13,630 nt of DNA from the NCBI GenBank assembly GCA_019057635.1, contig DXJL01000159.1, forward strand, positions 1 through 13,630, given 5' to 3'. This document shows, one piece after another, positions 9,720-11,239 of this stretch (positions within the stretch are counted from its first letter, which is position 1; every line of letters starts with the position of its first letter). Under the pieces are notes generated by a model. It made no database searches. It was not told the DNA's origin and saw nothing but the letters and a program-made list of their open reading frames with translations. The DNA is from Candidatus Heimdallarchaeota archaeon (lineage in GTDB: Archaea; Asgardarchaeota; Heimdallarchaeia; Hodarchaeales; Hodarchaeaceae). The position numbers were made by a program, and so were the translations under genes.

Positions 9720-10982
9720 TTACTCTGTCTTACTAAACGAATATTGACAATCAAAATCTCCCGAGAGAATCTCATCATGAGCTAGACGACCGATTTCGGA
9801 GTGAACTTGGGAAAAAAGGGGAACGGGCTTTTCTGATGACCAGGGTGTACCAGGTAGTGGCATGAAATAATGTAACCGAACACGGGCTTTTCTTCCAAGG
9901 TCACGCATCACTTCAAGCGTATCCCATTGATCTTGCTCAGTTTCTGAAGGAGTTCCGAGAATGAAATCAAAGACTGGTGTATATCCCTGAGAAGTTAGTA
10001 GATCGTACGCACGCATTCCTGCGTCTACGGTGTGTCCACGACGCATATCATGAAGGATTTTGTCAGAACCACTTTGAAATCCAACCGAAATTTGAGTATT
10101 ATCGACAGAGGAAAAGATAGAAACAATATCTTCTGTGATATATTCGGGTCTAACTTCAGAAGGAAAGGTTCCTAAAAATAACCGAACATCATACTGGTGA
10201 ATACGCTGAATTAATTCCTTGAGTATGGGGATATTCGGTATCCCACGTTTTTTCTCCCTGTAACCTAATGAATTTGGTGCAATAAATCGTATATCCACCT
10301 GTTTTTTCAATGGATGAAAGTAGTTGTAATAATGCTCAATTATCTTTAAGATGGCATCTATAGATCGAAACTTTGGATTTCCATACATATATGGTACTTG
10401 GCAGAAACGACAACGAAACGCACAACCACGCATGATTTCAATGGGTGGATGAAGAGGAAAAGGTTCATGAACGGAATAAGGACAATAATGATTAAGATCA
10501 ATACGTGGACGTGCGGGTGTTTGCACCAAATCATCAGTTGTATCCAGATACCCAATACCTGGAATGGTAAGTGGATGATGGAGAGAAAAATGTTGTTTAC
10601 TCAACGAGTGTATGAGTTCAGGAAAGGTTACCTCTCCTTCACCAATTACGACGAAATTAGCACCCATTTTCAGAATCTTAAGGGGGTCTCCTGAAGCATG
10701 AGGGCCTCCGATAACTGAGATCACTTCTGTAGAGGAAAAATTGTCATTTAAACTCTTTAATCGAGTTTTCAACTCTGAAAGAGTCATATTTCGTGAAGAT
10801 TCTCCATAAATTACCCTATATCCCTTGGAAGTCCAATTTTCAATCGTTTTAATGACTTCCCCCTTGATAACTTCAAATGGAATATTATGCTGAGAAAGAC
10901 TTGCTGATATTGCTCCAAAAGCATACCAAGTTATTTTGTCCCAATAAAGGAGTACTATGTATTTGTTGGTATCTTTTACCAT
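9720..10982 (-). CDS. B12-binding domain radical SAM protein (MJ1487/TIGR04013-like); start corrected to MVKDTNKY, 420 aa
   Basis: B12-binding signature IGGPHASGDP...VVIGEGE; CxxxCxxC in PIEIMRGCAFRCRFCQVP; IRFIAPN, FLGTFPSEVRPE, GFQSGSD, HYFMPLPGTP. The ORF-track extension to 11090 overlaps the tRNA. Confidence 0.88.
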   Translation of the reverse strand: MVKDTNKYIVLLYWDKITWYAFGAISASLSQHNIPFEVIKGEVIKTIENWTSKGYRVIYGESSRNMTLSELKTRLKSLNDNFSSTEVISVIGGPHASGDPLKILKMGANFVVIGEGEVTFPELIHSLSKQHFSLHHPLTIPGIGYLDTTDDLVQTPARPRIDLNHYCPYSVHEPFPLHPPIEIMRGCAFRCRFCQVPYMYGNPKFRSIDAILKIIEHYYNYFHPLKKQVDIRFIAPNSLGYREKKRGIPNIPILKELIQRIHQYDVRLFLGTFPSEVRPEYITEDIVSIFSSVDNTQISVGFQSGSDKILHDMRRGHTVDAGMRAYDLLTSQGYTPVFDFILGTPSETEQDQWDTLEVMRDLGRKARVRLHYFMPLPGTPWSSEKPVPLFSQVHSEIGRLAHDEILSGDFDCQYSFSKTE

Positions 10983-11062
10983 AGGAAAAAGCCCTTGTAA
11001 TAGGATAAGCAAATAAAAGTAAGGAATCCCTTGGCCGTGATTTGAACACGGGACAACTCGGT

Positions 11063-11116
11063 AAATGCCAAAGGCTAACATCCTCATCATCGAATTCTCT
11101 GAGGTGTGGCTTTCGC
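11063..11116 (-). other. Canonical 37/38 tRNA intron containing a box C'/D'-like K-loop
   Basis: BHB-like geometry: exon CTGT (32-35) opposite intron GCAT, bulges AG|G and TT|A. Rod-like stem AAAGC..ACA-CCTCA/TGAGG-A-TGT..GCCTTT. Confidence 0.88.
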
Positions 11117-11132
11117 CTACAGCCGAGGGCTC

Positions 11133-11162
11133 ATTAGACTAAGGTTCTACATGAACCATAGC
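11133..11162 (-). other. Non-canonical tRNA intron in the D-loop (position about 21/22)
   Basis: GCTATGGTTCATGTAGAACCTTAGTCTAAT forms the hairpin CTA-T-GGTTC/GAACC-T-TAG. Removing it restores a standard D-arm. The splice motif is a relaxed bulge-helix type and the junction is ambiguous by about 1 nt. Confidence 0.8.
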
Positions 11163-11219
11163 TTCCAGGCTGAGCTACCAAGGGTAAAGCATGAATCACT
11201 ACTCAAACAGGCGGCTGAA

Positions 11220-11239
11220 TGAATCTATATAAAGATTCA
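11220..11239 (-). promoter_or_regulatory. TATA box of the tRNA-Tyr gene (TTTATATA) embedded in an inverted repeat
   Basis: The minus strand reads TTTATATA at 11233-11226, about 42 nt upstream of tRNA nucleotide 1. The plus strand reads TGAATCT-ATATAA-AGATTCA. Confidence 0.65.

Follow-up and report, generated by a model that had tools for sequence, protein, structure and literature searches.

A conserved K-loop module in the tRNA-Tyr anticodon intron of Asgard archaea and its possible role as a cis-acting, atypical H/ACA-type guide

The tRNA-Tyr gene and the K-loop of its 37/38 intron

The stretch of DNA analyzed in this study (the window, 13,630 nucleotides, nt) is an entire 13.6-kb contig of a Candidatus Heimdallarchaeota archaeon genome of 3.19 Mb, 214 contigs and approximately 37% G+C, which is called G000 below (G, L, C, and f labels denote genomes, loci, contigs, and families of the Asgard sample, and f1-f7 belong to the same class as G000). 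Its ABCE1/RLI protein is 97% identical to that of a 'Candidatus Heimdallarchaeota' metagenome-assembled genome and 88% identical to those of 'Hodarchaeota' genomes of this type, which places G000 in the Asgard class Heimdallarchaeia. On its minus strand lies a tRNA-Tyr(GUA) gene interrupted by two introns (Table 1), one in the D-loop and one at the canonical position 37/38 behind the anticodon. The 37/38 intron carries a hairpin of the kink-loop (K-loop) type, and its possible role as a guide for the pseudouridylation of U35 in its own precursor is the subject of this report. An original prediction, made from the letters of the window, had described the hairpin as a box C'/D'-like K-loop and a candidate site for the protein L7Ae.

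Table 1. Coordinates of the tRNA-Tyr gene and of the elements of its introns in the window
Feature	Positions	Strand	Remarks
tRNA-Tyr(GUA) gene, two introns	11027..11184	(-)	158 nt; 74 nt without both introns; CCA not encoded
D-loop intron, ~30 nt	11133..11162	(-)	boundaries uncertain by 1-2 nt
Anticodon G34 U35 A36	11118..11120	(-)	U35 (11119), proposed target uridine
Canonical 37/38 intron, 54 nt	11063..11116	(-)	bounded by the anticodon stem and CUGUAG...A
P1 (5' duplex)	11108..11117	(-)	G37 and intron bases 1-2 (11117-11115) with GCC (11110-11108); GAAA loop
GA stem, 5' strand ACACCUCA, 8 nt	11100..11107	(-)	exactly 8 nt in 53/54 sequences
K-loop	11087..11099	(-)	GA 11099-11098, loop GAAUUCGAU 11097-11089, GA 11088-11087; tandem sheared pairs
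GA stem, 3' strand UGAGGAUGU, A11081 bulged	11078..11086	(-)	
3' arm UAGCC (proposed guide)	11073..11077	(-)	complementary to exon G30-G34 (11124-11120)
Intron tail	11063..11072	(-)	bases -6 to -3 (11068-11065) pair with C32-U35

The helices of the tRNA were assembled by hand, with an acceptor stem CCCUUGG/CCAAGGG, a D arm, an anticodon arm CUCGG-CUGUAG..A-CCGAG, and a T arm CCGUG-UUCAAAU-CACGG, and the cloverleaf helices were recovered by a single-sequence fold (-56.2 kcal/mol, z = -2.4). ARAGORN made no call in the window and Rfam at its gathering thresholds gave no match there, because the gene also has the 30-nt D-loop intron. A BLAST search with the gene against 60 related genomes gave matches in 25, most of which spanned the anticodon intron and not the D-loop intron, and the 25 orthologues were aligned (alignment A1) and used to build a covariance model, R1. 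This model and a broader one made from 61 sequences (R2) match positions 11057-11127 at 79 and 72 bits, respectively, and covariance modelling thereby detects a tRNA-Tyr gene that the standard tools missed.

The minus strand from 11104 to 11082, in the middle of the 37/38 intron, reads CCUCA-GA-GAAUUCGAU-GA-UGAGG, exactly as originally given in letters and coordinates. Tandem sheared pairs, a non-Watson-Crick 3b.3n position beside them, and a loop base before the second GA were all found, as in K-turns and K-loops. In a second alignment (A2) of 54 distinct sequences, consisting of 53 tRNA-Tyr genes and one extra copy, GA and UGA were present in 54 of 54, the loop varied from 5 to 14 nt, and the 3b.3n position was non-Watson-Crick in 44 (UU 30, GA 9, CA 3, and others), as is expected for a K-turn. 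The prediction of an L7Ae-binding kind of K-loop in this intron is therefore borne out by its conservation in the relatives, with L7Ae binding itself predicted from the motif. When the 31 tRNA genes called by ARAGORN in G000 were examined together with the hand-built tRNA-Tyr, GA...UGA above a stem of at least 4 base pairs (bp) was found in the Tyr intron and in no other gene.

A functionless hairpin that arose by chance was also considered. A descriptor of the K-loop (8-nt strand, GA, loop of 4-14 nt ending in U, GA, 7 pairs, and at most one bulge) had 571 matches in the 3.19-Mb genome and 408, 411, and 380 in three shuffled versions, and approximately 1-2 matches are expected in a window of this size. 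Such a hairpin in a single sequence is not above chance, and the predicted K-loop is real by its conservation and not by its improbability. The chance explanation, to which we give next to no credence, is refuted by the occurrence of a single copy in the same position in 57 of the 83 genomes of the class, by the invariance of GA and UGA, and by the compensatory changes seen in the stem.

Conserved stem and arms and their distribution among Asgard genomes

The stem beneath the K-loop (GA stem) has 8 pairs and 2 sheared pairs, or 10 layers, in 53 of 54 sequences, with or without a bulge, since the 3' strand has 9 nt with one bulge in 41 sequences and 8 nt with no bulge in 12. In alignment A2, which was fitted to a covariance model and so favours the proposed structure, 88.8% of the cells are standard pairs, compared with 27-46% after a shift of the 3' partners by 1-3 columns, and the observed pairing and covariation scores were reached by 0 of 500 shuffles. 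Compensatory changes occur at six of the eight stem pairs, one of which is GC in 23 sequences, CG in 11, AU in 9, and UA in 9, and at two of the three P1 pairs. RNAalifold, applied to an unfitted MAFFT alignment, independently recovered the anticodon stem, a portion of P1, and three inner pairs of the GA stem, again with compensatory changes; the consensus was weak at -4.7 kcal/mol, and its alternative has G34-U35 paired to the base of the stem.

The two flanks of the hairpin were originally thought to pair with each other, which they do in the single-sequence fold; this pairing is absent from the RNAalifold consensus, and the conserved parts of the flanks pair with the exon. P1 spans the 5' splice site and is closed by a loop of 3-8 nt across the sequences. 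Its G37-C pair is present in 54 of 54, its second pair is AU in 24, UA in 20, GC in 6, GU in 3, and CG in 1, and 91.8% of its cells are paired, with the covariants GGC/GCC, GAC/GUC, and GUC/GAC. The 3' arm, of consensus YAGY(C), stands directly 3' of the stem and is paired with G30-G34 in 95.4% of cells, all of its variation being from G-C to G-U. Both exon-pairing arms adjoin the base of the stem with zero spacer, and U35-A36 are the sole unpaired bases between the two duplexes in all 54 sequences.

Exactly one R1 match was found in each of 57 of the 83 genomes of the class, G000 included. By family, and with G000 excluded, R1 matched 16/21 genomes of f1, 2/2 of f2, 27/31 of f3, 9/12 of f4, 2/12 of f5, 0/1 of f6, and 0/3 of f7. 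The five genomes of the genus of G000 that had no R1 match also lacked both tRNA-Tyr exons; no genome of this genus with an assembled tRNA-Tyr gene lacks the module, as detected by the model. Of 151 evenly sampled Asgard genomes, R1 matched 28 and R2, at E <= 0.01, matched 55. The R2 matches included 22/25 genomes of f14, 6/19 of f17, 3/4 of f8, 2/5 of f20, and one genome each of f15, f22, and f27, and R2 found no match in f11 (0/26), f12, f18, f19, f21, f23, f24, or f25 of this sample. In several other Asgard families, a true K-turn takes the place of the K-loop, formed by a short C-stem hairpin and a 3-nt bulge whose last base is U, and their introns keep P1 and a CAGC(C) arm. The exchange of K-turn and K-loop is a described property of H/ACA RNAs (PMC4652768).

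Two additional loci were recorded in the survey. The genome G014 has a second copy of the module (L043:409-467, minus strand, 30.6 bits), which is free-standing, approximately 1 kb from tRNA-Tyr and without tRNA exons, and which shows UGUAG, P1, a 10-layer stem, a K-loop, and a UAGUU arm; it may represent a fragment of a pseudogene or a guide in its own right. The genome G025 has, at L142 (G025:C77:21400-21480), a second tRNA-Tyr-like anticodon arm with the loop CUAUAG (A at 34) and a degenerate intron at 29.7 bits.

These comparative data also bear on the box assignment of the original prediction, which had suggested a box C'/D' half-module or the relic of a C/D methylation guide, like the intron of euryarchaeal pre-tRNA-Trp, a box C/D guide for Cm34 and Um39 (PMC7994747). 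The exact box C (AUGAUGA) facing a D'-like CAGA, on which this assignment leaned, is true for the sequence of G000. Among the 53 orthologues, RUGAUGA (AUGAUGA or GUGAUGA) occurs in only 4 and CUGA in 6, and the conserved letters are just RUGA and NNGA. Of the terminal boxes, C was sought as RUGAUGA in the 5' part and found in 0/53, and D was sought as CUGA in the exon or the 3' tail and found in 1/53. Moreover, the D'-like box is preceded by 8 nt that are taken up in the covarying stem as its 5' strand and therefore cannot be a methylation guide. Neither C' and D' boxes conserved beyond the K-turn core, nor terminal boxes, nor a single-stranded guide of 10-12 nt was thus found in the orthologues, and a relic would not stay under selection across the class and into other Asgard families. 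We consider membership in the C/D class exceedingly unlikely and agree with the original view that the intron is not a classical guide.

A proposed cis-acting guide weighed against other explanations

We lean, with moderate confidence, towards reading the 37/38 intron as an atypical H/ACA-type guide that acts in cis on U35 of its own pre-tRNA-Tyr before splicing, a proposal drawn from comparative sequence data. In this mechanism, L7Ae would bind the K-loop that caps the 10-layer GA stem, and Cbf5-Nop10, possibly with Gar1, would dock on the stem. The UAGCC element just 3' of the stem would pair with G30-G34, and G37 and the first two intron bases would pair with the three bases 5' of the stem, so that U35-A36 would stay free at the junction, in the place of the target uridine of an H/ACA pocket. 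This guide fold would sequester half of the anticodon stem and bury the 5' splice site in a helix, and splicing would therefore need a refold, in which the segment at the 3' end of the intron would pair with C32-U35 to give the bulge-helix-bulge.

The anatomy of the intron agrees with this proposal in several respects. The 8 + 2 layers found in 53 of 54 sequences follow the rule for archaeal H/ACA stems (PMC4652768). The layer count, the abutting arms, and the two free bases together define an H/ACA pocket in the same source, and the bipartite pocket is found here in cis, with the 3' arm pairing on the 5' side and the 5' arm on the 3' side of the uridine, and with the uridine and one further base free. 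The combination of a K-motif hairpin, a 10-layer GA stem, and two arms, with no lower stem or ACA, is that of the atypical H/ACA RNAs (PMC4652768, PMC11077068).

Genes for the required proteins are present in G000, including Cbf5 (a 334-amino-acid open reading frame, ORF, with a DKCLD domain), Nop10, and two L7Ae-family genes (PF01248). A search of G000 with the Pfam Gar1 model gave no match; an ORF of G000 is Gar1-like, being 76% identical to the ORF of a relative that weakly matches Pfam Gar1. The gene for Pus7/TruD is likewise present (394 amino acids, with the catalytic Asp of the KD motif). Its motif II reads KD-AH-A, compared with the canonical KD-[KR][RH]-A, and the first basic residue is missing in 5/5 genomes examined in the genus (AH, AH, AL, AQ, and A followed by a truncation), a pattern that recalls the motif II substitutions of Pus7 in Sulfolobales (PMC2651775). 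Substitutions in this motif, with no trans guide, are also noted for Thaumarchaeota (PMC2651775). Within the genus, Pus7 is 43-55% identical to that of G000 (98% in G002). For comparison, RLI of G000 is 71-88% identical to that of Hodarchaeota and other Asgard metagenome-assembled genomes. Pus7 looks broken in two genomes of the genus, with stops in G011 (C12:327538-328702) and with two pieces lacking residues 100-238 in G012 (C3:120209-121077), either of which may be an assembly error.

The intron also fits the archaeal bulge-helix-bulge kind, which is defined by two 3-nt bulges with a 4-bp helix between them at the splice sites. Of 63 orthologues, 40 form all 4 bp of the central helix (C32-U35 with intron bases -3 to -6) and 20, among them G000, form 3 bp, and the outer helix h' is weak, with 0-1 bp in 42/63. 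The guide and splicing folds are mutually exclusive, since G30-G34 are taken up by the guide fold, in which the 5' splice site lies within P1. For G000, an energy of -16.7 kcal/mol was computed for the guide fold and energies of -12.5 to -16.7 kcal/mol for the tRNA-like alternatives, with an unconstrained minimum of -20.6 kcal/mol; the guide fold is near the tRNA-like energies and is therefore accessible. The covariation of P1 shows selection for a structure that is found only in the unspliced precursor and is incompatible with cleavage. It thus argues for a function before splicing at the anticodon loop, and against a role for the excised intron alone.

The possibility that the excised, perhaps circular intron is a stable atypical H/ACA-like small RNA (sRNA) that guides the modification of another RNA in trans, with the tRNA gene as a mere host, was weighed against this result. 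Archaeal tRNA introns are among the known circular RNAs (PMC7994747), and the free-standing copy in G014 would fit such a role. In addition to the covariation of the 5' arm with the first bases of its own intron, which is expected in cis and not for an external target, the exon base G37 is the invariant partner in 54/54 sequences, and each family has a 3' arm that matches its exon. We regard a trans-acting guide as very unlikely.

The mutually exclusive folds also fit an L7Ae-controlled splicing switch, another suggestion of the original prediction, and a version of it that involves L7Ae and no Cbf5 is the main rival of the cis-guide proposal. According to this rival, the K-loop is a structural element at which L7Ae would stabilise one fold of the pre-tRNA and so time or license splicing, or would help another enzyme, such as Pus7, to recognise the anticodon loop. 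Conservation of the K-motif needs nothing beyond L7Ae, and the bulge-helix-bulge, whose central helix has at least 3 bp in 60/63 orthologues, is incompatible with P1 and the 3' duplex. Pus7 is found in 143 of the 151 sampled Asgard genomes, and exon-complementary elements occur also in introns without the K-motif. Nevertheless, a role of L7Ae alone leaves unexplained why 8 + 2 layers are kept in 53/54 sequences while loops and tail vary freely, why the arms stand at the base of the stem with no spacer, and why exactly U35-A36 are unpaired. These results make the L7Ae-only explanation a real possibility, if a less probable one.

Several observations weigh against the cis-guide proposal. With Pus7 present, a guide is not obviously needed; in the module-bearing family f3 the Pus7 motif is fully canonical (KD-K[RK]), and motif II does not follow the presence of the module, being canonical in 8/20 genomes with the module and in 12/20 where no module was found, a comparison in which kin are not independent, G000 is among the 20 module-bearing genomes, and one of the 20 module-bearing loci gave no match. 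Two defining parts of canonical H/ACA RNAs were not found in the intron. There is no lower stem of 7-9 bp, as the 5' arm joins the target through the 3-8-nt loop and leaves no upstream strand for such a stem. Nor does an ANA box stand at a constant 14-15 nt, because the stretch between the stem and A38 is anywhere from 8 to 28 nt long; no trinucleotide is conserved in the aligned tails. The 5' duplex has only 2-4 bp, and the 3' arm duplex can show no covariation because the exon is invariant. If the 3' duplex is extended to include exon positions 27-29, 86/159 cells there are paired, compared with a permuted mean of 82.5, and 185 of 1000 permutations reach this value, so that the extension does not exceed the permutations. 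A scan of G000 for canonical H/ACA RNAs (K-loop, 10-layer stem, pocket, lower stem of at least 6 bp, and ANA at 14-15 nt) gave 6 matches, compared with 4, 3, and 1 in shuffles, and hence no enrichment.

The wider survey adds further points of this kind. In some other Asgard families, 9 layers and a bulge were counted by eye, not 10; the 3' arm is CAACC in two families, which gives a C32.A mismatch; and weak matches in f8 lack the K-motif, those in f20 being ambiguous. Three families without strong matches have a 37/38 intron in tRNA-Tyr with a plain hairpin and a CAGC-like element but no K-motif, so that the exon-complementary element alone does not prove an H/ACA pocket. This element may be older than, or independent of, the K-motif.

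Separately from the intron, one match of the canonical descriptor, G000:C116:4975-5040 (minus strand), was the only one in which the lower stem has 9 bp and an AUA box stands at 15 nt from the stem, and it is a candidate classic H/ACA sRNA.

Relation to known systems and other features of the locus

The closest counterpart by target is the H/ACA sRNA of Sulfolobales (Sso1, named sR115 in S. islandicus; PMC2651775, PMC11077068), which guides the formation of pseudouridine 35 (Psi35) in intron-containing pre-tRNA-Tyr in trans and pairs with the anticodon stem-loop and the intron (PMC2651775). The Asgard intron shares with it the proposed U35 target, the intron-containing precursor, the pairing with anticodon stem-loop and intron, and the K-turn motif on the upper stem, as these are described there. 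It differs in that guide and target are joined in one molecule, the intron being the proposed guide, and in that both the lower stem and ACA are lacking.

By architecture, the intron is more like the atypical H/ACA RNAs of Pyrobaculum and S. islandicus, with one K-turn or K-loop hairpin, a 10-layer GA stem, and single-stranded arms (PMC4652768, PMC11077068). The RNAs of S. islandicus have no lower stem or ACA, bind L7Ae and Cbf5-Nop10, and are active in vivo and in vitro, and they pseudouridylate uridines of their own 5' arms through 2-4 bp with the 3' guide (PMC11077068). Atypical guides are also accepted by the proteins of P. furiosus (PMC11077068). The cis topology of these self-modifying RNAs is the topology proposed here for the Asgard intron. 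Unlike it, the Pyrobaculum and S. islandicus RNAs are, in those accounts, free-standing, mostly aimed at rRNA, and known from Crenarchaeota, and the 5' arm closed on its target by a 3-8-nt hairpin loop is a trait of the Asgard intron alone in this comparison. The euryarchaeal pre-tRNA-Trp intron is similar as a guide of L7Ae-binding type that resides in a tRNA intron and is aimed at its own anticodon region, but it belongs to the C/D class, with methylation by fibrillarin, four boxes, and guides of 10-12 nt (PMC7994747). No C/D-specific feature was found in the Tyr intron.

In eukaryotes, the formation of Psi35 by Pus7 depends on the intron of pre-tRNA-Tyr, and eukaryotic tRNA-Tyr nearly always retains its intron. 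To our knowledge, the eukaryotic reaction is protein-only, and we know of no K-turn or guide pairing in it. The Asgard system would resemble that of eukaryotes in the modification of the same uridine and in its dependence on the intron, the Asgard dependence being the one proposed here. Pus7 is described as the eukaryotic Psi35 enzyme in PMC2651775.

A literature search of full texts found no report of an H/ACA-type guide in any tRNA intron or of a K-turn in a tRNA-Tyr intron, and a term search of a 2026 preprint on Asgard tRNA introns found no mention of Tyr, K-turn, kink, L7Ae, pseudouridine, or guide. If the proposal is true, the Tyr intron would be the first intron-borne, cis-acting pseudouridylation guide, the atypical H/ACA RNAs would extend beyond Crenarchaeota, and the retention of a tRNA intron throughout an entire archaeal class would have a functional reason. 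Asgard archaea, among them the group placed nearest to eukaryotes, carry the module, and the proposed target is the uridine whose modification is intron-dependent in eukaryotes; the origin of this dependence would therefore become testable. A wider reading holds that Heimdallarchaeia and several other Asgard lineages make Psi35 by an intron-borne guide, a self-targeting atypical H/ACA ribonucleoprotein obliged to act ahead of the refolding for splicing, as a checkpoint that places modification before splicing. In its boldest form, this arrangement would be ancestral to the eukaryotic situation, with the guide ribonucleoprotein later replaced in eukaryotes by protein-only Pus7. We consider this reading, taken together with its boldest form, speculative and quite unlikely.

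Other features of the gene and its surroundings were recorded as well. Among the extracted orthologues, the D-loop intron was confined to three genomes, namely G000 and the two relatives closest to it, G004 and G002, and most relatives without it read GCUCAGCCUGG..AGAGC at this place. In G011, an insert of another kind occupies a similar position and is flanked by a direct repeat of GAGCCCUCGG. An insert in the T-loop, UUCAAA[...]AUCACGG, was read by eye in the tRNA-Tyr genes at L015, L016, L020, L024, and L026 (G009, G013, G008, G032, and G049), so some tRNA-Tyr orthologues also have a T-arm intron.

A 456-amino-acid ORF at 9720..11090 (minus strand) begins with an ATG inside the AUGAUGA of the K-loop, and its open frame runs through the 3' half of the tRNA, which is an artefact; the start of this downstream gene, of the radical-SAM/B12-binding type, is probably the ATG at 10982. 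Additionally, a TTTATATA-like box was seen by eye at approximately 11226-11235 (minus strand), approximately 45 nt upstream of the 5' end of the tRNA, and may be the archaeal TATA element of the tRNA-Tyr gene.

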